Shown piece by piece: positions 11,843-47,990 of a stretch of DNA of 64,000 bases. Numbering within the stretch: position 1 is the first letter of the stretch; the number at the start of each line of letters is the position of its first letter. Under the pieces are notes generated by a model that was not told the DNA's origin, searched no databases, and saw nothing but the letters and a program-made list of their open reading frames with translations. This stretch comes from Armatimonadota bacterium (GTDB lineage: Bacteria > Vulcanimicrobiota > JACPDS01 > JBDRKI01). The stretch lies in the NCBI GenBank assembly GCA_043814095.1, contig JBDRKI010000037.1, positions 1-64,000 on the forward strand. The letters are read 5' to 3'. The position numbers and the translations under genes were made by a program.

Positions 11843-11901
11843 CCTAATTTAATTATACATAAAATATTTATTAATGAATATAGGTCGAAAGAACTAATTT
11901 A
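11843..11901 (-). promoter_or_regulatory. GACCTATATT-box promoter, copy 1
   Basis: Minus strand: GACCTATATT starts at 11886, TATAAT at 11857 (+29), TTAAATTAGG at 11852 (+34). Confidence 0.75.
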
Positions 11902-11923
11902 TAATAGAAAGTACCGTTAATCA

Positions 11924-11948
11924 AGGATTTTTTTGTATTCTATAGAAA
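11924..11948 (+). promoter_or_regulatory. SigH-like promoter of treS
   Basis: AGGATTT at 11924, GAAA 21 nt later. Confidence 0.5.
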
Positions 11949-11988
11949 AATAATAATATTAATCATATTTTTTCCGTATGGAGGCCTT

Positions 11989-14118
11989 ATGAAGCGTGTA
12001 AGAAGTTTTTCCTCTGTTATTTTCACCTTTATCTTTATCGCGGTATTTGTATTAAACTTTTCAGCTTTAAGCGCGGATGAAAATTATACTAAGTGGCTGG
12101 AAGATCAGTCAATGCTTTACCAGGGAGGAGTGCTCGCACAGGAGTATTCGGGCTCATCAAAACAGTGGCAGTATCCTTACGGCAACCCTGAGCCCGCAAA
12201 ACTTTGCGGGGAAGCCTCTTTATGGTTCAGTTCGTATCCCGCTTCCATAATTACAAAAGAAGGACAGAGCGTCCTTCAGTATCTGGCACAGGAAAAATTA
12301 TGGGAAGTCTTTGACGGTATAGGCATACACGCTCTTCATACCGGCCCCTTAAAAAGATCGGGCGGTATTGACGGGAAAGAATATACACCCACCGTTGACG
12401 GTTATTTTGACCGTATAAGCTTAGAGATAGCGCCGGAGTTCGGCACAGAAGCACAGTATAAGGAGATGGTTAAAAATGCCGCTGAGTACAGTTCGGTAAT
12501 AGCGGGCGATGTTGTGCCCGGGCATACCGGCAAGGGCGCTGATTTTCTTCTTGCAACTATGAAATACAAAGATTATCCGGGTATTTATCATATTATAGAG
12601 ATTAATGAAAAAGACTGGGATATGCTACCCTCGGTTCCTGAAGGAAAAAGCAGTATTAATCTTTCACCTGATGAGGTTTTAAAACTTAAGAAAGCCGGTT
12701 ATATCGTAGGGAAACTGCGGAGAGTTATTTTTTACGCTAAAGGGATAAAAGAAACAAACTGGAGCGCTACCGATACCGTAAAAGGAACCGACGGGAAAGA
12801 AAGAAGATGGGTTTACCTTCATTATTTCAAGGAAGGCCAGCCCACAATGGACTGGCTTGATCCTTCATTCGCCGCGGACAGGCTGATTGCCGGGGACGTT
12901 ATTAAAACAGTAGGGGTATTAGGCGCTAAAATTATAAGGCTGGACGCTAACGGTTTTTTAGGTATTGAGCCTGTTGAAGATTCCGTTACCGCCTGGTCGG
13001 AAGGCCATCCGCTCTCTGTCAATTCCACTAATTTAGTATCAATGCTTACAAGAAAGCTCGGCGGGTTCTCTTTCCAGGAGCTTAACTTAAGTTTTGAAGA
13101 TATTAAGAAATTCTCGGTTAACGGGCCCGATATGTCATATGATTTTATAACGCGCCCGGCGTATTGCCACGCGCTTCTTACAGGGGATGCTTCTTTCCTG
13201 CGGTTATGCCTTAATTTAATGCATAAATATGATATAGACCCCGGAGCTTTGATACATTCCATGCAGGTGCATGATGAGCTTACCTATGAGCTTGTTCATT
13301 TTGCGGACCACGGAAGTGAAATGTTCCCGTTTCACGGAAAAGAGATATCGGGAAATGACCTGCGCGACTTTATAATAAATCAGATGAAGGAGATAGCGGC
13401 AGGCAAAAACGCCCCCTATAACATGTTAAGCGGGAACGGGCTCTGCGCCACCTTTGCGAGCCTCTGCACAGCAGCCTTCGGCATTAAAGACCCTTATAAT
13501 ATGACAGAAGAAGAAACAGAACTTGTTAAACGGGGGCATCTGCTTCTCGCGTTTTACAATGCCATGCAGCCCGGGGTTATGTCTGTTTCGGGCTGGGATT
13601 TAGTTGGTGCGCTTCCATTACCTCTTTCATCAGTTAAAGAGCTTGTAGCGGATGAGGATTATAGATGGATTATAAGGGGGGCTTATGATCTGCTCGGCGA
13701 GAATCCCGGAGCGGATAAGGCATTATCATCAGGGCTTCCTAAAGCGGCGTGCATTTACGGATCTCTCCTAGCACAGTTTAAAGACCCTGATTCATTTGCA
13801 TCGCGGCTTAAAGATATTATGCAGATAAGAGAAAAATACAAGATAAATCTATCAGAGCAGATAGCGGTGCCTGAAGTTAAGAACAACGGTGTAGTCATAA
13901 TGGTGCACCGCCTGCCTGACGGAGCCGGCATAGAGATGACCGCTATTAATTTCGGGAGAACTCCCGCAGAGGAAACGGTTAATATGAAAGAACTCTGCAA
14001 TACGGAAATTACCGATATTATAAATGAAAAAGCAATAGGAGAAGTTGCAGGGGAAGGTTCTTTTACTTTTAAGATGGAGCCTCTTTCCGCAAATGCTTAT
14101 TTATTTACTTCCAAGTGA
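11989..14118 (+). CDS. treS: Trehalose synthase (maltose alpha-D-glucosyltransferase, Pseudomonas stutzeri type GH13) with predicted signal peptide
   Basis: WLEDQSML, DVVPGHTGKGADF, RWVYLHYFKEGQP, RLDANGFLG, FQELNL, HDELTYELVHF. Confidence 0.85.
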   Translation: MKRVRSFSSVIFTFIFIAVFVLNFSALSADENYTKWLEDQSMLYQGGVLAQEYSGSSKQWQYPYGNPEPAKLCGEASLWFSSYPASIITKEGQSVLQYLAQEKLWEVFDGIGIHALHTGPLKRSGGIDGKEYTPTVDGYFDRISLEIAPEFGTEAQYKEMVKNAAEYSSVIAGDVVPGHTGKGADFLLATMKYKDYPGIYHIIEINEKDWDMLPSVPEGKSSINLSPDEVLKLKKAGYIVGKLRRVIFYAKGIKETNWSATDTVKGTDGKERRWVYLHYFKEGQPTMDWLDPSFAADRLIAGDVIKTVGVLGAKIIRLDANGFLGIEPVEDSVTAWSEGHPLSVNSTNLVSMLTRKLGGFSFQELNLSFEDIKKFSVNGPDMSYDFITRPAYCHALLTGDASFLRLCLNLMHKYDIDPGALIHSMQVHDELTYELVHFADHGSEMFPFHGKEISGNDLRDFIINQMKEIAAGKNAPYNMLSGNGLCATFASLCTAAFGIKDPYNMTEEETELVKRGHLLLAFYNAMQPGVMSVSGWDLVGALPLPLSSVKELVADEDYRWIIRGAYDLLGENPGADKALSSGLPKAACIYGSLLAQFKDPDSFASRLKDIMQIREKYKINLSEQIAVPEVKNNGVVIMVHRLPDGAGIEMTAINFGRTPAEETVNMKELCNTEITDIINEKAIGEVAGEGSFTFKMEPLSANAYLFTSK

Positions 14119-14179
14119 ATAAATAATAAATCAATAAAAAAACAGCAAAGGTGCAGTCTGGAGAAATAGGCATATCTAC

Positions 14180-14208
14180 TTGATTGTAAATTTACGGTGG
14201 ATTATAAT
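14180..14208 (+). promoter_or_regulatory. Sigma70-type promoter
   Basis: TTGATT-17 bp-TATAAT. Confidence 0.6.
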
Positions 14209-14241
14209 TAATATGTAATGTATATAAAATGGGGGGTAATT

Positions 14242-16071
14242 ATGAGAAAGAATATCTTTATTCTGGCAGCTCTTTCTTTATTATTTTTATGCCTTGTTTT
14301 TGTTCTGCCGGGGTGCGGAGGCGGAAGCGGGGGAGGAGGAGGCGGTGGCGGCGGCGGAAGCAGCAGTGATAACACGACTACTGATGATACCGCGTCTCCC
14401 GCCGAGCCTGAAGTTACGGTAACTCCGGAACCTGCGAATAAAGGAGCGCTAATCACCGTAACTATGCCGGATAATTCCGCGGTTGCCGTTTTTGCAGGCG
14501 TAACTGATTATCCGGAAGGCGAGTATGATTTAAATTATACCGCTAATGACGCTATAGATTTTAAAAACGCCCTTATAGGGAATGAGCTATGGAACGGGGC
14601 TTCGGTATCTGTTCAGAATAATGTTCAGGTAACTAAGTCCATGATAAGAAATGCGGTTGAGTCCGCGAAAAACAGGATAAACAGCGACGGCCTTTTTATA
14701 TTCATGTATTCCGGTCACGGTACAAGTTCCGGTACTACCGGCTACATTGTTCCTTATGATGCGCTAATAGATTTAGACAACCTTATAAGCGAAGATGAGC
14801 TTAAAAGTTGGCTGGGCGAATTTGCTTCAAACGTTAAAAAATATGTTGTTATAGATTCATGCTACAGCGGTGAGTTTATAGATAAGAAAGCGGATATTAA
14901 AGGCAGCTGCGTTGATATTAAGGCTAAGTTTGTAAAAATACCGGGTTTTGACGGGAAATATGATAATGATAAATTCGCGAAGTCACTTTCAAGCGTATCA
15001 AATATTAGCGTGCTAACAGCATGCAGCCGGGACGAAATAAGTTATGAGTACGGCCCTGTTCAGAACGGTTTATTGATATATGCGGTTGATCATGCGTTAT
15101 GGCCCGGGTCTGTTATAGGTCCGTCTGATGAAGAAGGAGATAATGTAATATATACCAATGAGCTGGGTGATTATGCAAAGGCTTTTGTGCCTGCCATGAT
15201 CAGTTCACAGAATCCGCAGTCATACGAGAGCTGTCAGATGAAGATAAAAAGTTCCTGTATACCGGGATATAATAAAGGCACGCTTATAACCATAACAAAT
15301 CCGGATAAAACAAAATGTGCCGTTATTGTAGGAGTAAATGATTATCCCGGCGAGGTAAATGATTTAAATTATACAGTTACCGATGCCGCGGATGTAAAAA
15401 GCAGCCTGCTTGGAGCTGTTTTCCCGCTTGATTCCACTGTTAGTGTTCAGAATAATGTCCAGGTTACTAAATCAATGATAGAAACAGCCATTACTAATGC
15501 GAAAAACAGTATTGCGGGCAATGGTCTTTTTATATTTACCTATTCCGGTCACGGTACGAGTTCGGGAGACACAGGTTATATTATTCCATACGACGCTCTT
15601 ATAGATATAGATAATCTTATAAGTGAGGATGAACTGAGAATATTGCTGGATGGTTTTTCTTCAAGCGTAAAAAAATGTGTTTTACTTGATTCCTGTTACA
15701 GCGGTAGTTTTATTGATAAAAGCTCCGGCAGGAAAACAAGATTTGTGCCTATAGAAGGATTTAATCCCGGTTACAGGAGTGAAAAATTTGCAAAATCAAT
15801 AGTAGGTTCTTCCAATACTTATGTAATTACCGCTTCCCGCGGGGATGAAACTTGCTGGGAATTCGAATTTTTAGAAAACGGATTATTTACATATTATGTA
15901 TATAACGGATTGGGGCCCGGAGCCTTTGTCGGGTTGGCTGATTCAAACGGTGACTGCTATGTAACGGCAGAAGAGCTGTATTCTTATGTATCGTCTAAAG
16001 TTACAAGCGCGGTAGCTAACCAGCACCCCCAGTCTTATGATAATTATTCAGGGAGCCTTACAATTAAATAA
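14242..16071 (+). CDS. Lipoprotein with two tandem caspase-family (peptidase C14, clan CD) domains
   Basis: Lipobox LPGC plus poly-Gly linker; two copies of F.YSGHG...DSCYSG (His-Cys dyad); start at ATG 14242 after GGGGG SD. Confidence 0.88.
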   Translation: MRKNIFILAALSLLFLCLVFVLPGCGGGSGGGGGGGGGGSSSDNTTTDDTASPAEPEVTVTPEPANKGALITVTMPDNSAVAVFAGVTDYPEGEYDLNYTANDAIDFKNALIGNELWNGASVSVQNNVQVTKSMIRNAVESAKNRINSDGLFIFMYSGHGTSSGTTGYIVPYDALIDLDNLISEDELKSWLGEFASNVKKYVVIDSCYSGEFIDKKADIKGSCVDIKAKFVKIPGFDGKYDNDKFAKSLSSVSNISVLTACSRDEISYEYGPVQNGLLIYAVDHALWPGSVIGPSDEEGDNVIYTNELGDYAKAFVPAMISSQNPQSYESCQMKIKSSCIPGYNKGTLITITNPDKTKCAVIVGVNDYPGEVNDLNYTVTDAADVKSSLLGAVFPLDSTVSVQNNVQVTKSMIETAITNAKNSIAGNGLFIFTYSGHGTSSGDTGYIIPYDALIDIDNLISEDELRILLDGFSSSVKKCVLLDSCYSGSFIDKSSGRKTRFVPIEGFNPGYRSEKFAKSIVGSSNTYVITASRGDETCWEFEFLENGLFTYYVYNGLGPGAFVGLADSNGDCYVTAEELYSYVSSKVTSAVANQHPQSYDNYSGSLTIK

Positions 16072-16092
16072 ATAATAGTAATAACAATAAAT

Positions 16093-16133
16093 ATTACAAG
16101 AAATACATGATTTTACTATGTATTTCTTGTAAT
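16093..16133 (+). terminator. AT-rich inverted repeat, probable terminator
   Basis: ATTACAAGAAATACAT-9 nt-ATGTATTTCTTGTAAT. Confidence 0.55.
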
Positions 16134-16169
16134 TCATTTAATCTTTCCGTTATTTTTCTTGTTTTTCAT

Positions 16170-16250
16170 AAAAATACTCCATGTATCCTCTAAAAATACT
16201 CCTTTTGACCTATATTTTAATTCCTCATTTTGTTTTAAAGTTAAATTAGG
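16170..16250 (+). promoter_or_regulatory. GACCTATATT-box promoter, copy 2
   Basis: AAAAATACTCC at 16170 and 16192, GACCTATATT at 16207, TAAAGT at 16236 (+29), TTAAATTAGG at 16241. Confidence 0.8.
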
Positions 16251-16283
16251 GGGATAATATAGTACTTTAAAGGAGTGGTTTAA

Positions 16284-17300
16284 ATGTCAGATGCTGTTTA
16301 CAGGGTCACACCTGTAAAGAGAATTGAGCTTCATGAAGGCACTCTTAGCAAGGCGCTTAATGCGTACAGCAGAACCGTAAAACTTCTGCCGAGAGCGCTG
16401 AAAGCGCCTTCAGTAAAGCCTTCTGGGGCGGGTATTTCCAGATTTGCTTTAAGAGTAATAGATAAACTGGGAGAGATAAGGCATATTTTAATTAAGGACG
16501 GGGGAGCATCTGAAAGAGCCGTGGATGAAGTGCTTGGCAAGCTGCTTGAAAAACGGGGGCTTTCATTTAAAGATCTTCCCAAGGCGGATATAAGGGTATT
16601 GAAAGAGCTGGATAAAGCTTTGACTTCAAGAAATGCTTTAAAAATAATAGTTGATGAAGTTAAACTGGTAATGCAGAGAAACTTGATTATAAAAGAAATA
16701 ATGGAGTTTATTAAATATCTAGCCGATAAATTGAAAATGACGCGTCAGGAAGTTTTCAATATGCTGAAAAATAATCTTAACCAGCTTTACAGGTATATAT
16801 CTGTTCAGTTGTCTGACGGCGGAGCGGATGAGGTTGAGATGCTTGCCATGCGCCGCAACCTTGAGGTTATACATAATTTACTTAATAATGTTGAAAATTT
16901 AACGGCAAAGACTCTCTCCAGATTTAGTGTAAGGGAATTAACCAGAATTTTAAGGGCCATAAAGAATACTATGGATGTTCAGACTATAAGAACGGCCGGG
17001 GCTGTAACAAATGTTTTAGTTATCGCCCAGCAGGAAGTTATAGTGCCTGCCGCAAGCGCTCTGGGAAGAGTTCTTTTAGGTGCAGGTGCCGTTACCGTGG
17101 GTGCTACGGTCGGCTGGATTGCCGGCAGGCTTATAGGAGAACACTTCTATATTAAAAACAATAAGGGTAAATATGTAAATGTAGATACCCATGTCCAGAA
17201 ATTCTTTGAAAATAAGATGGACTGGGCTTTGTTCGTGTCGCGCTATGATACCGAATGGGGTTCTGCCGCAAAAGACAAGTTATTTAAGAAGAAAAAGTAA
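16284..17300 (+). CDS. Hypothetical helical protein with C-terminal glycine-zipper hydrophobic segment (paralog A)
   Basis: LLGAGAVTVGATVGWIAGRLIG; ends VSRYDTEWGSAAK; AAGGAG SD; paralog of 31094..32164. Confidence 0.75.
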   Translation: MSDAVYRVTPVKRIELHEGTLSKALNAYSRTVKLLPRALKAPSVKPSGAGISRFALRVIDKLGEIRHILIKDGGASERAVDEVLGKLLEKRGLSFKDLPKADIRVLKELDKALTSRNALKIIVDEVKLVMQRNLIIKEIMEFIKYLADKLKMTRQEVFNMLKNNLNQLYRYISVQLSDGGADEVEMLAMRRNLEVIHNLLNNVENLTAKTLSRFSVRELTRILRAIKNTMDVQTIRTAGAVTNVLVIAQQEVIVPAASALGRVLLGAGAVTVGATVGWIAGRLIGEHFYIKNNKGKYVNVDTHVQKFFENKMDWALFVSRYDTEWGSAAKDKLFKKKK

Positions 17301-17329
17301 CAGAAAAATTTTAACAATAATAATCTTAA

Positions 17330-17362
17330 AGACCGCTTTTATAAAAAGGCGGTCTGTTTTTT
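17330..17362 (+). terminator. Intrinsic terminator
   Basis: AGACCGC...GCGGTCT stem followed by a T-run. Confidence 0.7.
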
Positions 17363-17469
17363 CTTCTTTTCTTCTTTTCTTTGTAATTAACAATAAAGGG
17401 AGAAATTCTTAATTGTGGAATAATTAAGTTTAAAAAATAATCTCACTTTGTTTCTAATGAGGATTTATT

Positions 17470-18027
17470 ATGAAAAGATGCCCGTGGCCTGGGGATGATG
17501 AGCTATACATAAAATACCATGATGAAGAATGGGGTGTCCCGGTTCATAATGACAGGAAGCATTTTGAATTTCTGGTTCTGGAATCGGCCCAGGCAGGATT
17601 AAGCTGGATAACTATACTGAGAAAAAGGGAGAATTACCGGGTTCTGTATGACAATTTTGATCCGGTAAAAGTTGCTAACTACGGCAAAAAGAAAATTGAC
17701 GAGCTTATCAAAAATGCGGGCATAATCAGGAACCGCAAGAAAATAGAAGCATCTGTAAATAACGCGAAAAGGTTTCTTGCAATTGTGGATGAGTTCGGCA
17801 GTTTTGATAAATATATATGGAAGTTTGTAAATTACAAGCCCGTTAAGAATAAGTGGAAGAATATATCCCGGATTCCGGCTAAAACGGAATTATCCGACAT
17901 GGTAAGCAATGATCTTAAGAAAAGAGGTTTTAAATTCCTGGGTTCTGTAATTATTTATGCCCATATGCAGGCAACAGGACTTGTAAATGACCATCTTATT
18001 TCATGCCACAGGTATAAAATCAAATAA
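17470..18027 (+). CDS. tag: DNA-3-methyladenine glycosylase I
   Basis: RCPW, YHDEEWGVP, LESAQAGLSW, GIIRNRKKI, GLVNDHLISC. Confidence 0.95.
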   Translation: MKRCPWPGDDELYIKYHDEEWGVPVHNDRKHFEFLVLESAQAGLSWITILRKRENYRVLYDNFDPVKVANYGKKKIDELIKNAGIIRNRKKIEASVNNAKRFLAIVDEFGSFDKYIWKFVNYKPVKNKWKNISRIPAKTELSDMVSNDLKKRGFKFLGSVIIYAHMQATGLVNDHLISCHRYKIK

Positions 18028-18045
18028 TAAATGAGGCATAATAAT

Positions 18046-19334
18046 ATGAACTTGTATAAAGAAATAATTAAAAATGAAGTATTTCCGGCCATGGGATGCA
18101 CAGAACCCATATCAATAGCGTACGCGGCATCCATTGCGGCAGAAGGCACGGGAGAGGTACCCGAAGAGCTCCTTATACTGGTTAACCAGGGCTCTTATAA
18201 GAACGGGCTTGCCGTTACAATACCAAATACGGGCGGGGAGAAAGGCACCTTATAGCAGGGATACTGGGTTCCCTTATTGTCAAACCCGAGCTTAAGATGG
18301 AGATATTAAAAGACGTTACTCCTTCAATTCTTGCAAATGCTAAAAAACTTGCCGGTAATAAAAAGTTTTCCATAAATGTTCACCCGCATATCCAGGAATT
18401 TTATGTTGAGGTACAGCTTAAGACAAAATCGCATAGTAACATATGTATAATATCGGGAAGCCATACTAACTGTGTTTATCTTGAGAAAAACGGGAAAGTA
18501 ATTATTGATAAACGCGGTGAGGTCCATGAAAAAGAATCAGCTTCCTATAAAGACAAGGTGAGGAATCTAACTCTTTCCGAGCTTGTTGATCTTGCGGAAA
18601 ATATTGATGAAAAGGACATGGAATATTTAAAAAAAGGCATAGAGATGAACATGGAAATATTCCGTGCGGGCCAGAAACTTAAAAAAATCGGCTGGTTCAT
18701 GACAGATCTCATTAATAAAAAAATGCTGCTGGACGATATATTTTCATCCACAAAAGTAATGGTTGCATGCGCGGTTGACGCGAGAATGGACGGTTTTCCG
18801 CTTCCCGCCATGGCAAGCGGCGGGAGCGGCAACCAGGGAATAGTTGCAACACTCGTCCCTTATAATGTTGGTAAGGAATTTAAAGTTGATGAAAAAGTAA
18901 TACTTAAAAGCATAGCTCTTTCACATGTATTAAATTCATATATTAAATGCTTTACAGGGGACCTTGCTCCTATATGCGGGTGCGCCATAGCGGCCGGGGT
19001 AGGGGCGGCAAGCGCAATTGTATACCAGCAGAAAGGCAAGGATATAGAATCTATAACGTTTGCCATAAACAACCTTATAAGCGACTTAGGCGGCATGTTA
19101 TGCGACGGGGCCAAAAGCGGGTGCGCGTTAAAGGTTGTAAGCTCAGCTGATGCGGCTATAAGATCGGGTTATCTTGGTATCCATAATTACGGCATCACAA
19201 GCATAGAAGGTTTTATAGGGGCAAGTGCTGAGGAAACCATAAGAAATTTAAATAAAATTACAAAAATAGGTATGGCAAATATGGATGATACCATAATAAA
19301 TATAATGCTTGAAAAAAGCCGTATAGGAGGATAA
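18046..19334 (+). pseudogene. L-cysteine desulfidase-like (YhaM/CyuA, UPF0597) gene split by a 1-bp frameshift near 18247
   Basis: PAMGCTEP in the 5' part; ARMDG...SGGSGNQG, CGC and GMLCDGAKSGCALK in the 3' part; adding one base gives continuous GEKG(N)LIAGILGSLIVKPELKMEIL. Confidence 0.8.
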
Positions 19335-19335
19335 G

Positions 19336-20355
19336 ATGGGAAAAGCTTTTAAGGTTTTAACCGGTTGTTTGATTGTTATTATGTTTATGGGATGTGTAAG
19401 TACTGTTTGTGCCCAGGAAAAGTGGGGATTTATAAACACATCGGGTGAAGAAGTTGTTTCTTTAAAATATGACACTGTTACTGATTTTGAAGACGGTTTT
19501 GCCGCTGTTGAGCTTAACGGCAAATGGGGATTTATAGATAAAACAGGGCAGGAAGTCGTCTCTGTTAAATACGACTCGGTAGGTACGGAAGATGTCTGCT
19601 TCAGTGAAGGGTTTGCCGCAGTAAAGATTGATGATAAATACGGTTTTGTAAATAAGAACGGGTCTCTTGTTATTGCCGCTAAATATGACAGTGTTAAAGA
19701 TTTCAAGGAAGGCCTTGCAGGTGTGGAACTTAACGGTCTCTGGGGCTTTATAGATACAACAGGCAGGGAGGTTATTCCTTTAGAATACGGTTTTGCCGAG
19801 GATTTCCAGGACGGTTTTTCAGCCGTTGAAAAAGAGACGCTATGGGGATTTATAGATAAGGCGGGAAATAAAGTTGTTCCTTTAAAATACGAGAACGCCT
19901 GGTCATTTACGGAAGGTCTTGCCGCTGTTGAGCTTAATGGGCAGTGGGGCTTTATAAATACAGCGGGTAAATTTGTTGTTCCTTTAAGATATGATGATGT
20001 GAATAATTTTTATGAGGGACTTGCCGTTGTTGAGCTTGACGGTAAATACGGTCTTGTAGATACAACCGGCAAAGACGTTGTATCTGCTAAGTACAGCAGT
20101 ATTAATAATTTTGCCGGAGGTTTTGCCGCTGTTGAACTTAATGAAAAATGGGGTTTTATAGATAAAACCGGGAAAGTTGCAGTAACAATAAAATATTACT
20201 CCGTAGAAGATTTCCATGAGGGACTGGCTTCTGTTGAGTTAAACGGCAAATACGGCTTTATAAATAATGCTGATGAGCAGGTTGTCCCCGTTGAATATGA
20301 TTACGCGTATTCTTTCAGCAACGGCATGGCCGCTGTTTTTCTTAATGATAAATAA
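19336..20355 (+). CDS. Secreted WG (KWG) repeat protein, truncated by an in-frame TAA
   Basis: Signal peptide; repeats F.EGLAAVELNGKWGFIDKTG; the repeat pattern continues in frame to TAA 20548-20550. Confidence 0.88.
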   Translation: MGKAFKVLTGCLIVIMFMGCVSTVCAQEKWGFINTSGEEVVSLKYDTVTDFEDGFAAVELNGKWGFIDKTGQEVVSVKYDSVGTEDVCFSEGFAAVKIDDKYGFVNKNGSLVIAAKYDSVKDFKEGLAGVELNGLWGFIDTTGREVIPLEYGFAEDFQDGFSAVEKETLWGFIDKAGNKVVPLKYENAWSFTEGLAAVELNGQWGFINTAGKFVVPLRYDDVNNFYEGLAVVELDGKYGLVDTTGKDVVSAKYSSINNFAGGFAAVELNEKWGFIDKTGKVAVTIKYYSVEDFHEGLASVELNGKYGFINNADEQVVPVEYDYAYSFSNGMAAVFLNDK

Positions 20356-20556
20356 GGTTTTGCGGACGTAACAGGGAAGCTCGCTGTCGGTTTGAAATAT
20401 GACAGTGTTCTGAGTTTTACTGACGGGCTCGGAGCTGTTGAGATTGAAAATAAATGGGGTTTTGTTGATAAAACGGGAAATCTTACGGTTCTCCTTAAAT
20501 ACAGTGAAGTAAATATATTTAAAGAAGGGCTTGCACGGGTAAAGAAATAAAAACTT

Positions 20557-22410
20557 TTATTGACTCGCCGGCAGTCTTACATAGAATTTTGATCCTTTTC
20601 CCGGGGTGCTTTCACATAATATCTTGCCATTGTGGGCTTCTATGATTTTTCTGCAGATGTAAAGGCCGTTGCCGAGACCTTCGAATCTTCTTGTTGATGA
20701 CATATCAACCTGGTAGAATGGATCAAATATTTTTTTAATCTGATCTTCAGATATGCCTATCCCGTGATCTTCGAATACGATGTTAATCATTTTAATATTA
20801 TCTTTTTTAGTAAATCCTATCGATATATTTATGTTCCCGCCCTCCGGTGAGAATTTAACGGCATTATCGAGTATATGGCGGAAACAGTGTGTCAGTTTAT
20901 CTCTGTCGGCGTTTACCGTTAACTGTATTCCCGGAGATGTTTCTGCGACATTAATGCTTATAACATTGGGAACCCCGCGCTGCCTTATATTCTCGGCTTC
21001 TTCCCTTATAATCGCTTCAATGTTGCAGATACCGTAATTTATCTGTTTCTCAACGCCTTCTATGTCATTAACTACGAAAAGATCATATATAAGCATATTT
21101 AAATGCTTTGATTCTCTGGCAATTACATTTAAGCTTTCGGAAACTGTTTCATTTTGGGTAGAATCAAGTTCATCTTTTAAAAGATCATTGTACCCGGTTA
21201 TCATTGTGACAGGTGTCATAAGTTCGTGTGATATAGATGCAAGGAAGATTTCCCTTTTTTTCTGTTCCTCAAAGAGCTGTTCTATATAATCCTCAATAGC
21301 GTTACCCATAACGTTAAACGCATGAGATAGTTTTCTTATCTCAAGAATTCCTTTTTTATCATCTAGGCGGGCTTCAAAATTTCCCTGTGCGAAGTTTTCG
21401 GTTTGTTTTACAAGCTCTGATACGGGTGAAAGTGAATTCCCGATAATTATAATAATGAGTATAATAAGGAATAAAATTACTATTGCAGAAGCAATAATAG
21501 TGATACTTGTATATTTTACAAGCGGCCCGAATACAGCCGTGCTTGATTCAACGATTATAAGGTCCCAGTTGGTCCCTGTTATGGGACTTACCGCCATACA
21601 TGATAGTTTGCCGGTGAACGGGTCCTTGATATTTTCCAGAAGAGCATCTTTGTCCCGGTGTATAGCTCCTATGAAACGTCTCATATCAGGGTTTTTAGAT
21701 AAATCTTTTAGATTGAAAATTGATTCAGTTGAAATTAAGTTTTTCATGGGATGAGCAATAAGATGACCTTTTTTATCAACAATAAACCCGTAGCCGGTAG
21801 CGCCTATCTGCAGGGATTTAAGTTTTCTTATCATGGAATCCAGAGAAACATCTACGGTGGCAACTCCTTTAATCTTGCCGCCTCTTACAACAGGCACGGA
21901 ATAGGTTATCATAAGTTTATTCCCGCCGCCTTCATCATAATAGGGCTGTGACCATATCCCTTTATTTTGCTTAACAGCTTTGGTAAACCACGGTTTATTC
22001 ACATAATCGTATGAAGGCGTATTAAGAGATGTGTATTTAGTTTGATCTCCTGATTTATAATAATAAGGGGAGTATAATCCCAAAGAAGTTTCTGAAGGTA
22101 TAAGCGCGAGGGTTGAACCGTAAATACTAGGATTTTTTTGCAGGGTTTTGTATATTATATCCCTTATATTCTTATCGGTAAAATTCGGGAGAACTTCATA
22201 AGTATTTGCCATCCCTTCAGCTATTTTTTCAGCCATAGCTATAAGGCCTGAAAATTCGCACGCATAGTAGGTGCTTACAGATTCGGCTTCATACTTGATT
22301 CGTTTTAAGAGAGTATCTTTAGAAATTGTATAATTAACAAATACAACAAGCCCGAATAATAATATAATAATGGGAATAAGTATTAATAAAAGTTTTTTTC
22401 TTAAACTCAT
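20557..22410 (-). CDS. Sensor histidine kinase (dCache-HAMP-HisKA-HATPase)
   Basis: Cache motifs PWFTKA, WSQPYYD, GVATVD; ASISHELMTP; DNAVKFS, DHGIGI, FYQVD, GLGNGL. Confidence 0.92.
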   Translation of the reverse strand: MSLRKKLLLILIPIIILLFGLVVFVNYTISKDTLLKRIKYEAESVSTYYACEFSGLIAMAEKIAEGMANTYEVLPNFTDKNIRDIIYKTLQKNPSIYGSTLALIPSETSLGLYSPYYYKSGDQTKYTSLNTPSYDYVNKPWFTKAVKQNKGIWSQPYYDEGGGNKLMITYSVPVVRGGKIKGVATVDVSLDSMIRKLKSLQIGATGYGFIVDKKGHLIAHPMKNLISTESIFNLKDLSKNPDMRRFIGAIHRDKDALLENIKDPFTGKLSCMAVSPITGTNWDLIIVESSTAVFGPLVKYTSITIIASAIVILFLIILIIIIIGNSLSPVSELVKQTENFAQGNFEARLDDKKGILEIRKLSHAFNVMGNAIEDYIEQLFEEQKKREIFLASISHELMTPVTMITGYNDLLKDELDSTQNETVSESLNVIARESKHLNMLIYDLFVVNDIEGVEKQINYGICNIEAIIREEAENIRQRGVPNVISINVAETSPGIQLTVNADRDKLTHCFRHILDNAVKFSPEGGNINISIGFTKKDNIKMINIVFEDHGIGISEDQIKKIFDPFYQVDMSSTRRFEGLGNGLYICRKIIEAHNGKILCESTPGKGSKFYVRLPASQ

Positions 22411-22463
22411 AAAAATAAAATTCCAGATGAATTATAAAACACCTTTTTATAGTATTGTTTAAA

Positions 22464-22490
22464 AGGATTAAATTTTATCTATGAAGAATT
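22464..22490 (+). promoter_or_regulatory. SigH-like promoter
   Basis: AGGATTA at 22464, GAATT at 22486. Confidence 0.5.
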
Positions 22491-22498
22491 AAAGCTTT

Positions 22499-23644
22499 AT
22501 GAATAAAGACATATGGAAAGACAGGCTATACGCGGTATGCTTTGCCATAGGCGTGCTGGTTCTTGTTTTTATTATTCTGCGGCTTTTAAGTTCTGTTAAA
22601 ATCGTTGTTGTAATGCTTGCGATCTCAATACTCCTTGCCTATATTCTGGTCCCGGCTGTCAGGTTCTTCAATTCTCCCATTGTGATTATTTATCCGGGGT
22701 ATATATCGTTTTTCAGAAAAAAGATTAAGCTTTCCAAAGAGAAAAAAATTATATTGAAAAAAGAAGGATTTCCTAAGATACTGGCAATTTCAATAGTATA
22801 TATTTTCTTACTGGTATTACTCTGGATCTCGGTATCGTATGTTCTTCCGAAGATAGCTTTTGAGTTTCAAAAATTTAAATATAATCTGCCCCAGCTTCAT
22901 TTAGATATGAAGACATCCTTTAAGAGTATTTCGGCATGGCTTGACTCAAAACTCCCATCTTATTTTTCAAGATCCGTTCTGCCCCAGGTAATAGATACTT
23001 TTCTTACGGAAGTTAAAAATATGGGGCTGGGTATTTTGCGCCAGACCGTGCCGATTGTAATAAGGATATTTTCTAATGTAGCCATAGCCCTTATTATACC
23101 GCTTCTTACCTTTTATATACTTATGGACGCGGATAAATACAGAAAAGGGTTTATGAGTTTAATACCCGCCCGCAGGAGGGAAGATACATCAGAGCTTTTA
23201 AAGAAAATTGACCTTGTTTTAGGAAGATTTATAAGGGGGCAGTTGATTGTCTGCTTTTGTATAGGCGTATCGGTAACGATTGTCTTAAAGCTGTGGGGGA
23301 TTGAATACGCATTTTTAATCGGTGTCTTCTCAGGGATTGTGGAAATAATACCCTATGTGGGTGTTGTGGTAAGTATGGTTCCTGCCGTTCTGCTTGCTCT
23401 TTTAAAGTCTCCCTGGATCGCTCTGGGAGTATTCGCGACCTTAATAGCGCTTCACTGGTCTGAAGGCCATATTATTATCCCGTTAGTTGTGGGTCAGGTA
23501 GTGGGCCTCCCTCCTCTTGTTATAATAGTAGCTCTTTTGGTAGGCGCCGAACTTATGGGTATCCCGGGCATGTTTTTAGCGGTTCCTGCCGCAGCTGTTA
23601 TAAGGGTGGTGCTGAACCATTACCTTGAGAAGTTGAAAAACTGA
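22499..23644 (+). CDS. AI-2E (PerM/TqsA) family transporter
   Basis: LAYILVPAV, RFIRGQL, IPYVG, GIPGMFLAVP. Confidence 0.9.
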   Translation: MNKDIWKDRLYAVCFAIGVLVLVFIILRLLSSVKIVVVMLAISILLAYILVPAVRFFNSPIVIIYPGYISFFRKKIKLSKEKKIILKKEGFPKILAISIVYIFLLVLLWISVSYVLPKIAFEFQKFKYNLPQLHLDMKTSFKSISAWLDSKLPSYFSRSVLPQVIDTFLTEVKNMGLGILRQTVPIVIRIFSNVAIALIIPLLTFYILMDADKYRKGFMSLIPARRREDTSELLKKIDLVLGRFIRGQLIVCFCIGVSVTIVLKLWGIEYAFLIGVFSGIVEIIPYVGVVVSMVPAVLLALLKSPWIALGVFATLIALHWSEGHIIIPLVVGQVVGLPPLVIIVALLVGAELMGIPGMFLAVPAAAVIRVVLNHYLEKLKN

Positions 23645-23804
23645 CCTTTATTAGAAGCTGCAAAAAAATATTTTTCTTAAATTTAAATATTTTCTTTCAT
23701 TAATTTCCATATCAAAAATCGCTGGGGAAGGGTTTTTTATATTTTACAAGAAATTTAAATAAATTAAGCTTTATATGTTTTTAAAAAAATAAGGAGAGTG
23801 AAGA

Positions 23805-26800
23805 ATGAGAAAAACAAATTTATTTTTAGTACTTGCCTTTCTTATGGTGCTTGTCGCGCAGCCGGTTTTTTCCGCTGCTGACGCGAATGTCGCCATTACT
23901 AATCCGCCGGTAAACAGTTCTGTATATCCGGGGCAGGATTTAAGTATAACTGTCAGTATAAATCCCGCGGTTGTAGAGGTAGCCCAAAAACTGCTTGTCA
24001 GCATAGTGCAGAATAATTCTACTATCGTTCAAACAATAATTGCCGGTCCTCAGGCTAATAATAATGTAAGATTGCAGATACCCGGTAATGCGGCGCTTGG
24101 AAACGCGTCCATAAAGGCTTATCTGTCGACCAGTCGGGCCGTGGAAAATTTTGAAACCTCCATGCCTATAAGAATTGACAGAATTGACGCCGATCTTCGC
24201 ATTACAAGCCCCGCGCCAAACGCGCCGGTAAATCAGGGTCAGAACGTTCCCGTTGCAGTTACAATGAACAGGGAAGCCGCGGGCTTTGCGGCCAAACTGG
24301 TCGTTAAGATAGTGCAGAATAACTCTGCGATTGCACAAACTGTTGTTGCCAACCCCCAGGCAAATAACAGGATTAACCTGCAACTGCCAGCGAACGCGGC
24401 CGTAGGCAACGCTTCAATAGAAGCATATATTGCTCCCTCCGACAATTTAAATAATCACAGTGTTGCTATCCCGATAAGGATAAGCGGTGTTAATGCCAAC
24501 CTGCGCATTACTTCCCCCGCGGCCAATACAGTGGTATATCCGGGTCAGAGCTTAAATGTCGGGCTTGCAATTAATCAGGAAGCTGTCGGTGTAGCCAACA
24601 GGATTGCCGTACTGATTAACCAGAACAACCGCACTATACTGCAGACTAACATTAATAATCCGGGACAGGTTAATAATGTTAGGATAGAGGTTCCAGAAAA
24701 TATAGAGCTCGGCCAAGCTGATATTCAGGCATTTGTATATCCTACGGAGATTTTAGAAAATCATAGAGCTTTAGTTCGTCTAACTGTAAGCAAGGTTGAC
24801 GCCGGGCTTCAGATTACAAGGCCTGCGGCAAATACTTCTGTTTCTCAGGGTGAGAATGTGAGTATTACTGTAGCCATGAACAGGGAAGCCGTCGGCGCGG
24901 TAAACAGGATTCTTGTAAGAATTTATCAGAATAACAGATCAGTGGTGCAGGAAATTATAAATAATCCGCGTTCCGCCGCGAATACGGTTACACTGCAGCT
25001 TCCCGCGAATGCGGCTGCCGGGAACGCGTCAATTCAGGCATTTGCTTATCCGAATAACATTTTAACTCATTTCAGCGCTTCACTGCCGATAAGTGTAGGC
25101 GCGGTTGATGCCGGTTTAAGGATAACGGGTCCCGCTGCTAATTCAAGCATATATTTAGAGCAGGATGTTCCTGTTACGGTTAATATGAACAGGGATGCTG
25201 TGGGTACTGCCCATAGATTACTTGTTAAGATAGAGAAAAACAATACTGTGGTGGCGCAGACCGTTGTTAATAATCCCCAGACAGTCAACCGTGTTACCCT
25301 GCATGTTCCCGGTAATACGGTTTTAGGTCCTGTTGTCATAAGGGCTGTTGTTGAGCCCGAAGGTATGAGTAATTCCAATGTTTCAATACCCATTGCCGTT
25401 GAGAAAGCCGATGCGGGTGTTCAGATTGTAAGACCTGCCGCCAATGAGGTAATATCACCGGATCAGGATATTGATATTTTAGTTAATATGAACGCCGTAG
25501 CAGTCGGTATAGCCAGCAGTATGGATATCGCTTTAATGCAGGGCGGGCGCATACTTGCCCGGACATCGGTTAATAATCCCCGCACTGCCACGCGTGTAAC
25601 CCTGCATGTTCCGGCTAATGCCGCTGTGGGCGAGGCTAATATCCAGGCGGTTGTGAGTCCCAGTAACAGTCTTAATAACCGCAACGCTCTGGTGAATGTA
25701 AGTATAAATAAAGTTAATGCTAATCTGCGGATAACATCTCCCAATGCAAATGCCAATCTGTTACAGGGACAGGATGTGCCTATAACGGTTGTTATGAACC
25801 GCGAAGCACAGGGAGTAGCCGAGAGTATGCGGGTCAGGATAGAACAGAACGGTGTCGCCATAGCGCAAACCGTCATAAATAATCCACAGATAACTAACAG
25901 GGTAACTTTACATGTTCCGGCAAATGCCGCTGTACGCAATGCATCAATACAGGCATTTGTATATCCGTCAGAAAGAATGATAGGACACAGTGCAGCCATC
26001 CCGGTTAATATAGGCAGTGTCAATGCCAATCTGCGCATTACTTCTCCCGCGGCTGATGCTGTTATATATCCGGGCCAGAGTTTAAATGTCGGGCTTACCA
26101 TTAATCCGGAAGCAGTTGGTATAGCTGACAGGATTCACGTAACGCTGACACAGAATGGCCGCAGTATAGTGCAAACTGATATTAATAATCCCAGACAGGT
26201 AAATAATATAACGATAGAGATTCCCGCGGATGCCGCTCTTGGCGAAGCAACTGTTAACGCTTTTGTGTATCCTTTGGATAATTTGGGTAATCACAGTGCC
26301 TTAGTGCGGTTAACTGTAAGCAAGATTGATGCAGGGCTTCAGATTACAAGGCCTGCGGCAAATACTTCTGTTTCTCAGGGTGAGAATGTGAGTATTACGG
26401 TAGCCATGAACAGGGATGCCGTCGGTGCAGTAAACAGGATTCTTGTAAGAATTTATCAGAATAACAGATCAATTGTCCAGAAAATTATAAATAATCCGCG
26501 TTCCGCCGCGAGTACGGTTACACTGCAGCTGCCTGCGAATGCGGCTGCCGGGAACGCGTCAATTCAGGCATTTGCTTATCCGAATAACATTTTAACTCAT
26601 TTCAGCGCTTCACTGCCGATAAGCGTGGGCGCGGTTGATGCCGGTTTAAGGATAACGGGTCCTGCTGCGAATTCCAGCATATATTTAGAGCAGGATGTTC
26701 CCGTAACGGTTACGATGAACAGGGATGCAGTAGGTACTGCTCAGAGATTACTTGTTAAGATAGAGAAGAACAATAATGTGGTTGCGCAGACTGTAGTTAA

Positions 26801-28469: not shown

Positions 28470-28507
28470 GGTTTTGGTCCTGAAGTTAAAATAGAAAGTA
28501 TAAGATA

Positions 28508-28543
28508 AAGCAGGGACTGTGCATATATGAACAGTCCCTGCTT
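28508..28543. terminator. Bidirectional terminator
   Basis: AAGCAGGGACTGT-10 nt-ACAGTCCCTGCTT between convergent genes. Confidence 0.8.
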
Positions 28544-28598
28544 ATTTTCTTAATTAAAATCTTTCTTTCTTTCTTTCTTTCTCTTGTTTTTTTATTAT

Positions 28599-29987: not shown

Positions 29988-30139
29988 AATTTAAGCTCCT
30001 TAAATTAAATATAGGTTTATTGACAGGTGTCTGGTTTTAATTAAATAGAAGGCTTTGTTTTTCCTGCAACAAAAGGTATTTATATTAAAACAGCAAAATA
30101 TTATATAAAGTTTTATCCTGAAAATAAGGATGTTTTTAA

Positions 30140-30976: not shown

Positions 30977-31055
30977 AAATACTTCTTTTATCAACAAAAA
31001 ATACTCCTTTTGACCTATATTATATATCATCATTCCGCCTTAAAATTAAATTAGG
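30975..31055 (+). promoter_or_regulatory. GACCTATATT-box promoter, copy 3
   Basis: AAAAATACT(T/C)C at 30975 and 30997, GACCTATATT at 31012, TAAAAT at 31041 (+29), TTAAATTAGG at 31046. Confidence 0.8.
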
Positions 31056-31093
31056 AGATAAATATCCTATTTACATTAAAGCGGAGTTGATTT

Positions 31094-32164
31094 ATGGGAA
31101 ACGGCCAGATAAGCGGTATAGGCAGCGTAGGAAATGTAGCCAATATGTATAATATTTTTAAGCCTCCTGTCAGCTTGGGTTCCGGCGGCACAGCGGCAAT
31201 GAAGAGTTATGTTTCATCAGGTACTGTAGATACTTCAACTATAAGTCAAGAGGGACAAAAATATTTGAGGGCATTTAAAGAAGTAAGGAGTAATATTATA
31301 GAAATAGGCCGGCCTTTTAAAGAGGCTGCGAAAACGGCCGGCAATGATCTTAAAAAAGATGTTAACAGTTCATACCTGAAAACAATTAATGAATGGCTGA
31401 AAAGGAATTTTAACGGCGCTACTCTTAATAAATTAAAAGATTTGAGTACTGAAAGCCTGCAGAAAATAAATAATGCGCTGAGGACTAAAGCGGGAGGACT
31501 GGGAAGAATGCTGACCGATCCCCTGGTAAGAGTGAAAAATGCCGTATCATCGGAAAAGTCAATATGGAAAATAGCAGGTCATATAAGAAAAATAGCGGCA
31601 GAACTTAAGATGCCGAAGAGTGAAGTCTGGAAGCTTGTAAGGAGTAATATAGGCAAGGTCGACAGCCGGGCCTGTACAAACAGCCAGAATTATAATTTAT
31701 CCGTAATTAGCAATGTATTGAGAAATACGGGCGGAAAAATTACAGGCGGAACTCTTAGGGCTCTTTCCAGAATAGATTTGAATTCACTCCAGAATTTTGA
31801 AAAAGCTTTTCTGGAAGGCGTAAAAACTCAAACTCTAACTGTTCAGCAGGCAGGCCGTAATATTTCTTCAACCGTAATGAATTTAGGTGGAAAAGAAATT
31901 GCTATTCCGGCGATGAGCGCTTTAGTGCAGGCTCTTCACGCTTCTGCGGGCGCTTCGGCAGGGGCTACTGCCGCAGGAGTTACGGTTGCCGCGGTAGGCG
32001 GATGGTACATCGGCCGGGGTATAGGCAATATACCCATAGGAAACGGCAGGAAAGTGGATAATGCAATAGAGGACTTTCTGAAAAAGCATAAAATAGATGG
32101 TGTTTCATATCATGATACTCAGTGGGGAGATTCAGCGAAAAAATACATTAAAGACAATAAATAA
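31094..32164 (+). CDS. Hypothetical helical protein with C-terminal glycine zipper (paralog B)
   Basis: AGASAGATAAGVTVAAVGGWYIGRGIG; ends VSYHDTQWGDSAK; paralog of 16284..17300. Confidence 0.75.
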   Translation: MGNGQISGIGSVGNVANMYNIFKPPVSLGSGGTAAMKSYVSSGTVDTSTISQEGQKYLRAFKEVRSNIIEIGRPFKEAAKTAGNDLKKDVNSSYLKTINEWLKRNFNGATLNKLKDLSTESLQKINNALRTKAGGLGRMLTDPLVRVKNAVSSEKSIWKIAGHIRKIAAELKMPKSEVWKLVRSNIGKVDSRACTNSQNYNLSVISNVLRNTGGKITGGTLRALSRIDLNSLQNFEKAFLEGVKTQTLTVQQAGRNISSTVMNLGGKEIAIPAMSALVQALHASAGASAGATAAGVTVAAVGGWYIGRGIGNIPIGNGRKVDNAIEDFLKKHKIDGVSYHDTQWGDSAKKYIKDNK

Positions 32165-42218: not shown

Positions 42219-42241
42219 AAAATAATAACAGAATCAGACAG

Positions 42242-45776: not shown

Positions 45777-45813
45777 TTTAAATCATAACCTTTTTAACAG
45801 TGTTTTCTGAAAA

Positions 45814-47232: not shown

Positions 47233-47305
47233 CGTTCCCTCCTTTTTCTTTTCAAGAAAAATATTATTTTACAATGTTTTTCTACAATAAACGAATAATA
47301 CCTTT

Positions 47306-47366
47306 AAAAATACTCCAAAAGACCTATATTATTAGCTTGATTTTTGTTTTATAATATAATTGAAGG
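47306..47366 (+). promoter_or_regulatory. GACCTATATT-box promoter, copy 4
   Basis: AAAAATACTCC at 47306, GACCTATATT at 47321, TATAAT at 47350 (+29). Confidence 0.78.
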
Positions 47367-47390
47367 AAATAAACATAGGGAGGTATTTAT

Positions 47391-47990
47391 ATGTCAGATT
47401 TTTCAATAAGAGCTCCGCAAAATCAAATCTCAAGTACTATTTTTAATCCCGCGAAAGAGAATGATCTTTCCAGTTTTAATAAGTTTGATTTTCTTCCCGG
47501 CAGGTATTTAATGCTTTCTAATACAAACGGGAGCTGCCTTGTTTACAGCGATCATAAATTTATGGCCCAGTTAAAAGGCAAAAGAATAAGCAACATGACG
47601 GACGAGCAGTTTAATCATTTTGTAAAACAGGTAAGCGCGAAAGTCGGCAAGATGCCCGCAGACCATCCCGATAAAAAAGCCGCATTATCAATGTTGAAAA
47701 AAATGAAGGGCGATATAAAGCTTTTCGAAAACAATTATCCTATAGCAACTAATACCCAGATGTCTTTTAGAATTCCCGGCACAAAACTCAGTGTTGATTA
47801 TGACAGGATTAAACATAAAATAAAGTTTTTTGAAAACGGAAAAGAAATTGCCTCTCCTAAAAACGCGAAAGATATTCTGAAAAAATACATAATGGATATG
47901 AAAGATAAGCTGCGTCCGGGTGACGGAAAAGACAAGACAGTGTTTAATATGCTTAAAGAAATGTTAGGGGATTATTTAAAGAGCAGATAA
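47391..47990 (+). CDS. Hypothetical protein; member of the GACCTATATT regulon
   Basis: 199 aa, GGGAGG SD, no signal peptide, Ser/Asn-rich N-terminus. Confidence 0.72.
   Translation: MSDFSIRAPQNQISSTIFNPAKENDLSSFNKFDFLPGRYLMLSNTNGSCLVYSDHKFMAQLKGKRISNMTDEQFNHFVKQVSAKVGKMPADHPDKKAALSMLKKMKGDIKLFENNYPIATNTQMSFRIPGTKLSVDYDRIKHKIKFFENGKEIASPKNAKDILKKYIMDMKDKLRPGDGKDKTVFNMLKEMLGDYLKSR

Follow-up and report, generated by a model that had tools for sequence, protein, structure and literature searches.

A lineage-specific promoter box at a fixed, non-canonical distance from a sigma-A-type -10 element in an Armatimonadota genome

The stretch of Armatimonadota DNA analysed here, referred to as the window (64,000 nucleotides (nt); contig C37:1-64000 of a 2,498,781-base, 129-contig genome with 39% G+C), carries four dispersed genes that are each preceded by the same promoter element, a 25-nt box set at a fixed distance from a -10 hexamer. 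The downstream half of the box contains GACCTATATT, which matches exactly at four places in the window: 11877-11886 on the minus strand, and 16207, 31012 and 47321 on the plus strand. Shuffled versions of the window contain 0.32 exact copies on average, and none of 100 shuffles reaches four. With one mismatch allowed there is no enrichment in the window (eight matches, shuffle mean 6.44). The genes and their promoters are laid out as follows.

11258-11818, minus strand: gene of P0001, 186 amino acids (aa), an orphan without a Sec signal; one loop is EF-hand-like, below the Pfam cut-off
11852-11857, minus strand: -10 hexamer TATAAT, 19 nt past the box, followed by TAAATTAGGAAG
11877-11901, minus strand: 25-nt box, the weakest of the four (29.0 bits); its upstream half is the degenerate TAAATTAGTTC, its GACCTATATT half is exact
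16170-16180, plus strand: extra half-box AAAAATACTCC, 22 nt before the main box
16192-16216, plus strand: 25-nt box, full consensus (41.7 bits)
16236-16241, plus strand: -10 hexamer TAAAGT, 19 nt past the box, followed by TAAATTAGGGGG
16284-17300, plus strand: gene of P0002, 338 aa, helical in its core, with a hydrophobic, Gly/Ala-rich segment towards the C-terminus
17330-17355, plus strand: intrinsic-terminator-like hairpin and T run after P0002
30975-30985, plus strand: extra half-box AAAAATACTTC, 22 nt before the main box
30997-31021, plus strand: 25-nt box, full consensus (41.7 bits)
31041-31046, plus strand: -10 hexamer TAAAAT, followed by TAAATTAGGAG
31094-32164, plus strand: gene of P0003, 356 aa, with a hairpin after the stop codon
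47306-47330, plus strand: 25-nt box (33.2 bits), AAAA replacing TTTT before GACC
47350-47355, plus strand: -10 hexamer TATAAT
47391-47990, plus strand: gene of P0004, 199 aa, an orphan, with a terminator-like hairpin and T run after the stop codon

In all four promoters the -10 hexamer begins 29 nt past the G of GACC, and the 19-nt spacer between box and hexamer is not conserved. AAAAATACTCC lies 15 nt 5' of GACCTATATT in three of the sites and is replaced by its degenerate form at 11886; the additional half-box 22 nt farther upstream occurs in two. Directly past the hexamer, three sites have TAAATTAGG and the one at 47321 has ATAATTGAAGG. None of the four has a -35 element at the canonical distance, where the sequence 17 bp upstream of the -10 reads TAT[T/C]nn, and none has a homopolymer tract in its spacer. 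The downstream open reading frames (ORFs) start with ATG 33-42 nt past the hexamer. The original prediction had described this arrangement: GACCTATATT at four sites with a -10 exactly 29 nt later, an upstream AAAAATACTCC in three, a second copy 22 nt farther in two, TAAATTAGG in three, and no canonical -35 at 17 bp. Reading the sites bore out every one of these details.

The box extends well beyond the window. Genome-wide there are 19 exact copies of GACCTATATT, 13 of them within the extended motif, and the 25-nt core of these 13 was used to build a position weight matrix (PWM). The matrix finds 72 sites of at least 14 bits, and the score distribution is bimodal, with 57 sites of at least 24 bits above a background that decays through 338, 81, 14 and 5 sites in the bins 0-5, 5-10, 10-14 and 14-18. 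Searching with the pattern AATACTCCNTTTGACCKATAT and up to two mismatches returns 54 matches in the genome (26 forward, 28 reverse), and the reversed pattern, used as a control, returns 0. The consensus of the class is AAAAATACTCCnTTTGACC[T/G]ATAT[T/C], 19 nt, TATAAT, tAaa.TaGg. The four window sites are therefore members of a set of more than 50 promoters, a regulon of roughly 55-70, and the 54 pattern matches and 57 strong sites refute the description of a four-gene regulon with which the analysis began.

Spacing was scored at 56 of the 57 strong sites (at least 24 bits), the remaining one lying at a contig end, and a hexamer was accepted as a -10 if it matched TATAAT at five or more of six positions, which a random hexamer does 1.6% of the time. 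Such a hexamer lies 16-24 nt past the box at 49 of the 56 sites. The distance is 19 nt in 32 cases, 20 nt in six, 18 nt in three and 21 nt in another three, and it is 16, 22 or 24 nt in five. Seven sites have no hexamer, several of which are the upstream members of tandem box pairs. All sites are oriented towards a start codon with a Shine-Dalgarno word, located 14-93 nt past the -10 in 41 of 43 cases.

The genome separates this arrangement cleanly from ordinary promoters. When TTGAC[AT] is paired with TATAAT at a variable distance N, the counts peak at N=16 (21 cases) and N=17 (25 cases). For TTGACC the peak is at N=25 (21 cases) and N=26 (seven cases), and for TTGACG it is at N=25 (eight cases). 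Two promoter classes thus coexist, a canonical housekeeping class and the box class, in which the -35-like TTGACC stands 8 bp too far upstream. The box promoters form a class apart, with a -35-like hexamer too distant for a sigma-70-type factor to reach both elements.

In 28 single-copy promoters, conservation is limited to the box, the -10 and the bases just after it, and the 19-nt spacers and flanks are unrelated. Conservation of the motif positions alone argues for selection on a binding site and against recent duplication. The count, the spacing and the two-class comparison support the original claim that a co-regulated set is marked by a box of constant orientation, set at one non-canonical distance from the -10 (here of the sigma-A type) and activator-dependent in appearance.

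The box is lineage-specific. Among the 30 nearest species representatives, one from the same order and the rest from the same phylum, each genome has 0-1 matches. Exact copies of the box were looked for in 185,579 species genomes; the four matches are isolated, lie in unrelated metagenome-assembled genomes and are about as many as a rough estimate allows for chance. Scanning metagenome contigs for exact copies placed the box on 11 of them (L055-L065). These contigs align to the genome in short patches only, at 78-96% identity, which marks them as diverged relatives. They hold 13 PWM matches, of which 11 have a -10-like hexamer 19-20 nt downstream (rows counted by eye); two pairs are identical in sequence, so that the hexamer is present at nine of 11 distinct sites. 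TAAnnTAG-like bases follow the hexamer in most, and other orphan genes lie downstream. The PWM scan of the genome and its relatives that had been proposed at the outset yields both 57 strong sites here and a box that is kept in diverged metagenome contigs.

The genes behind the box fall into two groups of about equal size. A strict filter (box of at least 24 bits, -10 of at least 5/6, start codon within 130 nt, ORF of at least 50 aa) retains 39 distinct products, 18 with a signal-like hydrophobic N-terminus and 21 without; P0002 is missing from this table solely because its TAAAGT scores 4/6. About half of the targets thus carry Sec or lipoprotein signals, and about half are Sec-less orphans that include all four window genes. 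As a whole, the regulon lists the surface and exported repertoire of the organism: a phase-variable family of about 158 aa, RHS toxins, a caspase-like lipoprotein, enzymes that remodel the wall, and around two dozen orphans. The 158-aa family has 22 box-driven members with Sec signal peptides. The remaining recognisable products are two RHS/YD-repeat proteins, a caspase-domain lipoprotein, a YkuD L,D-transpeptidase, an SLT transglycosylase and a protein whose C-terminus weakly resembles a serpin; a FliK-like protein follows a weak half-box, and about two dozen box-driven proteins have no family. Both RHS/YD-repeat proteins have N-terminal hydrophobic segments and are encoded on one contig.

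C102:137,424-142,223, minus strand: box-driven RHS/YD-repeat protein, 1599 aa
C102:145,260-148,307, plus strand: box-driven RHS/YD-repeat protein, at least 1016 aa, running to the contig end

Promoters of the 158-aa family contain a variable poly-G tract in the spacer, with runs of about 7-14 G in many of them, and the spacer and leader are conserved together with the box among these paralogues. A tract of varying length in this place is understandable only if promoter function depends on how far the box stands from the -10. Several promoters of this family also contain tandem boxes 32-33 nt apart, in which the proximal box alone stands at working distance from the -10. Examples of tandem-box promoters are the following.

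C28:16102-16160: tandem-box promoter
C49:28943-28999: tandem-box promoter
C75:40127-40185: tandem-box promoter
C99:66362-66408: tandem-box promoter

None of P0001-P0004 matches a Pfam or NCBIfam family over the cut-off, and none has a hydrophobic N-terminus, P0002 having been judged by reading its sequence. The original description of the four products as Sec-less orphans is consistent with both results. P0002 and P0003 are paralogues (29% identity, E 2e-11). A word-index homologue search, covering proteins of near lengths only, returned none for P0003 or P0004. A HMMER search with P0002 and P0003 over 1.84 billion representatives added five further members, and no member was found in a further 300 genomes of the phylum. 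An AlphaFold2 model was built for P0003 on a six-row alignment and has a mean predicted local distance difference test score of 62.8. It predicts a mostly confident helical core at about residues 48-270 and low confidence at both ends, where the first 47 residues are modelled as disordered and the C-terminal part is hydrophobic and Gly/Ala-rich. Foldseek found no match to this model in the PDB at E≤0.001, and in the VIA wide search the best hits were generic helical bundles (best Z 6.5). A scan with PHROGs and PADLOC gave nothing meaningful (a tail family, E 0.0015; SduA, E 0.0079).

How, then, might the box work? We favour, as the probable reading, sigma-A promoters that have no usable -35 and depend on an activator bound at a class-II-type site. 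Observed directly are the box with its orientation and constant spacing, the number of copies, the conservation in relatives and the gene content; the mechanism is the step beyond them. The box would span about -56 to -32 and would include an A-tract as well as the -35-like TTGACC that lies 8 bp too far upstream. A dedicated activator may sit on it, probably with two protomers arranged head to tail; where an extra AAAAATACTCC half-box lies 22 nt upstream, more protomers would bind there. Direct contact would let this activator recruit sigma-A RNA polymerase, much as ExsA, BvgA and Spo0A act at over-long spacers, and transcription would start about 7 nt past the -10, within the conserved TAAATTAGG. 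The regulon would in this way co-activate lineage-specific envelope, surface and exported proteins, the window genes being Sec-less orphan members. With its -35-like element 25 bp from the -10, the geometry would be the extreme so far of the design that combines an over-long spacer with an activator and that ExsA, fim and Spo0A promoters exemplify.

Known systems offer several points of comparison. The canonical sigma-70/sigma-A promoter shares a -10 close to TATAAT and differs in its TTGACA-like -35 at 16-18 bp. The sigma-28/FliA class-3 regulon (FlgM export) is similar in its dispersed monocistronic genes, its single promoter type and the presence of a flagellar-type export gate in the genome, and the CCGATAT core of the G variant of the box resembles the sigma-28 -10. 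However, of the sigma-28 consensus, TAAA-N15-GCCGATAA, the box matches the CCGATAT part only: there is no TAAA 15 nt upstream, where the bases are not conserved. In further contrast, a separate TATAAT stands here at a fixed 19 nt downstream, and no FliA gene, flagellin or FliS was found in the genome. PhoB/OmpR-type boxes, which replace the -35, are direct repeats spaced 10-11 bp apart next to the -10 region. Here a weak wwwKAC repeat at 10 bp occurs within the box (AAATAC / TTTGAC) and the genome has three OmpR-type regulators, but 19 nt separate the end of the box from the -10, a helical turn more than in a pho box. In Bacillus subtilis, the sigma-A promoter spoIIG is activated by Spo0A: about 22 bp separate its -35-like element from the -10, and it works only with the response regulator bound over that element. 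Here, by contrast, the spacing is 25 bp and no Spo0A C-terminal domain is encoded.

The promoter architecture is closest to that of ExsA, an AraC/XylS-type activator of Pseudomonas aeruginosa. In ExsA promoters, 21-22 bp separate a -35-like from a -10-like element, and the activator binds at two sites, one covering the -35-like element and the other an A-rich stretch near -51 (PMC4552939). The two architectures share a consensus-like -10, an over-distant -35-like hexamer and an A-rich element upstream, and the two adjacent ExsA sites, which cover about -55 to -33 with critical spacing, can be likened to the present box. The A-rich site near -51 is matched by AAAAA at the 5' end of the box, at about -56 to -52. 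The differences are that 25 bp (21 cases) or 26 bp (seven cases) take the place of the 21-22-bp spacer, that no AraC-family gene is present, that the apparatus operons have no full box, and that the regulon is far larger, with about half of it Sec-dependent proteins. For the promoters of the 158-aa family, the closest parallel is the Bordetella fim promoters, in which a 'fim box' is combined with a C-stretch whose length sets activity (PMC1891110). The fim2, fim3 and fimX promoters, controlled by the NarL/FixJ-type regulator BvgA, likewise place an activator box upstream of the -10, and one NarL/FixJ-type regulator is encoded here. By analogy, the length of the homopolymer in the spacers of the 158-aa family should set promoter activity. 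The four window promoters differ in lacking such a tract, and the box sequence is unrelated.

The census of regulators constrains what could read the box. There are only four sigma-70-family genes: RpoD, a SigH equivalog and two of the extracytoplasmic function type. Given a -10 of this kind, which fits sigma-A, sigma-A plus an activator at about -56 to -32 is the most economical reading. The response regulators present are three of the OmpR type and one of the NarL/FixJ type, the latter encoded at C31:10628-11269 next to a hybrid NarX/UhpB-type kinase. This NarL/FixJ-type protein is our tentative first candidate for the activator. Alternatively, the role could fall to one of the three OmpR-type regulators or to a factor of an unrecognised family. 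The box itself offers a handle for finding the regulator among these four candidate response regulators, in an uncultured lineage for which we know of no experimental work on gene regulation. No description of the box was found in the literature on Armatimonadota flagella or, among the titles listed, on Armatimonadetes type III secretion, none of which deals with the present subject. Control by CsrA through the two GGA motifs of the transcripts (TTAGGA at the 5' end and the Shine-Dalgarno sequence) was considered and rejected, as no CsrA gene was found.

Several observations weigh against an activator acting on sigma-A promoters. AraC-family domains (PF12833) have no match in the genome, although a control found PF12833 in eight of 14 reference genomes, and LytTR and Spo0A_C domains are likewise absent, which leaves the closest architectural models without their regulator family here. 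A scan for autoregulation found no site of at least 6 bits before the NarL-type operon or before two of the three OmpR-type genes; the best match of the scan, 12.7 bits, lies upstream of the third OmpR-type gene. TACTCCT in the box is in line with the NarL heptamer TACYYMT, as a lead only. A strictly conserved box of 25 nt is also unusually long for a response regulator, which leaves room for an unrecognised sigma-like or appropriator protein. Finally, we infer activator binding, the start site and co-expression, and the only RNA run found consists of low-depth contigs. That run, X1, a metatranscriptome labelled as groundwater metagenome, gave 11 contig pieces against 11250-31249, ten of them at least 99% alike. 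Two pieces lie inside P0002 (16504-16690 and 16668-16817) at a depth of about 2-5, where DNA carry-over is possible; none falls on a promoter among the matches listed, and contigs cannot reveal starts, strand or level.

The length, asymmetry and strict orientation of the box, together with the -35-like TTGAC it contains, would also suit an element recognised by another sigma factor, which could be the SigH equivalog or a sigma-like protein not yet recognised. SigH is well conserved in the genome, scoring 360.7 bits where the cut-off is 208. We nevertheless regard this as improbable: the -10 is the sigma-A consensus TATAAT, common to the canonical 16-17-bp promoters, and the 25 bp from TTGACC to the -10 exceed the span of the sigma-70 family. 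The SigH consensus (AGGAWWT ... GAAT) is absent from box and -10, and beyond the four sigma-70-family genes the only other region-4 match belongs to a 93-aa Xre-type protein. Highly improbable, in our judgement, is that the box is a promoter cassette copied by duplication or by mobile gene cassettes, with no dedicated regulator behind it. The 22-member family does keep spacer and leader along with the box, and the orphan genes resemble insertions among housekeeping genes. However, the 28 single-copy promoters share the box, -10 and start region only, with unrelated spacers and flanks, and diverged relatives have an equal box and spacing before different genes. No flanking repeats were noticed in the alignments, in which no search aimed at repeats was made.

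A further proposal concerns the products rather than the mechanism and is compatible with an activator-dependent promoter: the Sec-less half, including the four window proteins, could be substrates or effectors of a flagellar-type type III export apparatus, with the box regulon as its 'late gene' class. The genome encodes such an apparatus at C54:7,432-23,611 and C55:~12,100-15,510, and two more rod genes lie elsewhere, next to a second FliK-like gene. In this genome, which is rated 98.97% complete, no flagellin N-domain, FliS, MotA/ExbB or FliA sigma was found. FliK-type specificity-switch proteins that have no known late substrates leave an empty slot. The N-termini of the 21 Sec-less products are polar (S/T/N/Q/G/P 0.41 versus 0.305, p=0.003) and poor in L/F/M/W/C (0.109 versus 0.186, p=9e-5). 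The P0002/P0003 family starts with M-S-[D/N]-x-x-I-x-x-x-P-[V/I]-G, and a profile of its N-terminus puts five unrelated box-driven proteins among the top 45 of 5944 N-termini (ranks 3, 17, 22, 27 and 43), where about 0.4 would be expected. The polar, Leu-poor N-termini and a loose M-S-x-x-I-x-P-x-G start common to the Sec-less products are suggestive only. The predicted disorder of the first 47 residues of P0003 points the same way, as do Atlas neighbours that include families secreted by type III systems, namely HrpK (0.75), a SopB/IpgD fragment (0.83) and YopR/VscH (0.82); these are leads only, since all are below 0.9, and the neighbours, all at or below 0.84, are at chance level.

The evidence on the other side makes this proposal doubtful. 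The apparatus operons have no full box: on C54 no site of at least 5 bits lies upstream of the flgB-type, fliM and flgE-like operons, and upstream of the FliK-like operon on C55 there is an 18.6-bit match to the upstream half of the box only. The original prediction had asked whether the box precedes secretion-apparatus operons, and at the flagellar-type operons it does not. Sec or lipoprotein signals are carried by 18 of the 39 regulon products. No homology or fold match links the products to an effector, translocator or chaperone (Pfam and NCBIfam; Foldseek and VIA for P0003). The N-terminal statistics are post hoc, their background includes spurious ORFs, and E<0.1 is reached by only one profile match outside the family. 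Nor is the strict INP-type start a mark of the regulon alone: of the 46 ORFs that carry it, five have the box. The box is moreover limited to this lineage, while the export system is phylum-wide. Of the wider idea of an activator regulon of exported effectors, the promoter part is supported in kind, 'four-gene' is wrong, and about half of the targets (18/39) are ordinary Sec or lipoprotein products. The analysis establishes the box count and spacing statistics, the two promoter classes, the Sec-less half, the regulator census and the separation from the flagellar-type operons.

Arrays of TGTTAACA, repeating every 11 bp, stand instead before the flgB-type and flgE-like operons on C54 and before the FliK-like operon on C55. 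Each array has three to four TGTTAACA/TGTAACA units in 11-bp phase just before a TATAAT-like hexamer.

C54:~23,650-23,760, minus strand: TGTTAACA array
C54:~15,500-15,560, minus strand: TGTTAACA array
C55:~15,560-15,620, minus strand: TGTTAACA array

These arrays appear to control the export apparatus and to form an element distinct from the box regulon. A two-tier cascade can be envisaged, with TGTTAACA arrays for the machine and the box for its cargo. The Sec-less half (at least 21 orphans with the loose M-S-x-x-I-x-P-x-G start, the four window genes included) would then be the missing late substrates of a flagellin-independent export machine, a flagellum-derived secretion system outside the known injectisome lineage. 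We hold this fuller scheme to be a shade more doubtful still. Should the Sec-less products prove to be cargo of this apparatus, the substrates of a flagellum-derived secretion system not described so far would be given by the regulon.

PMC10290634 treats the flagellar-type genes of the phylum simply as flagella. In our sample of the phylum, FlhA occurs in 31 of 31 genomes and the flagellin N-domain in 12 of 31. We built a quick IQ-TREE tree of 39 full-length FlhA segments, with support from the Shimodaira-Hasegawa-like approximate likelihood ratio test only and with genomes G012, G024, G026 and G027 left out. It contains a 12-row clade (support 100) in which 11 rows come from flagellin-bearing genomes and the twelfth is a copy from the flagellin-less G003. 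A 22-row group (support 84) unites 12 flagellin-less genomes, including the present one, with second copies of ten flagellin-bearing genomes. Outside these are a long-branched four-row clade of family f12 and one copy from G005 that falls outside all groups. On this quick tree, the export gate of the genome seems to belong to an FlhA lineage that is retained with or without flagellin, and the flagellin-bearing genomes seem to hold an extra FlhA of another clade.

Two extra proteins of the genome consist mainly of the cytoplasmic C-terminal domain of FlhA without its membrane part (C4:6190-7566, minus strand, 458 aa; C67:~7,470-8,351, minus strand, in an open frame of ~430 aa). Relatives contain many such FlhA C-terminal-domain proteins, with up to 18 FHIPEP matches in one genome, some in open frames of 900-1700 aa. 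On the same contig as the first of the two, at C4:154-3735 on the minus strand, lies a tandem array of four paralogues (283-305 aa); all contain an HExxH motif, such as YHELMH, and they are possibly a small metalloprotease family.

The full SigH ('sporulation sigma H') equivalog is located at C75:~64,512-65,168 on the plus strand (L042:1393-2049), after cysS and a TrmH-type methyltransferase gene. The order cysS, TrmH-type gene and SigH is that of Firmicutes. The weak sigma region-4 match in the window, at 8739-8837, was rejected as a sigma candidate; it lies in the 93-aa Xre-type helix-turn-helix protein, which is probably an antitoxin. This protein follows a short ORF, and the two (~8480-8930, plus strand) resemble a toxin-antitoxin pair.

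Within the window, the box genes are located among genes for an amino-acid permease, a glutaminyl cyclase, a beta-eliminating lyase, a methyladenine glycosylase and a serine dehydratase. The P0001 gene is followed after 22 nt by a gene for a seven-transmembrane HD (7TM-HD; HD_5) protein (9940-11235, minus strand), and the lack of a terminator together with the short gap suggests that the two are probably co-transcribed. P0001 alone among the four box genes looks bicistronic; the terminator-like hairpin after P0002 suggests that this gene is monocistronic. Divergent from the P0001 promoter (11989-16071, plus strand) are genes for a 709-aa protein without a family and a 617-aa caspase (Peptidase_C14) protein. 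Caspase-like proteins recur in the genome, and one of them is box-driven.

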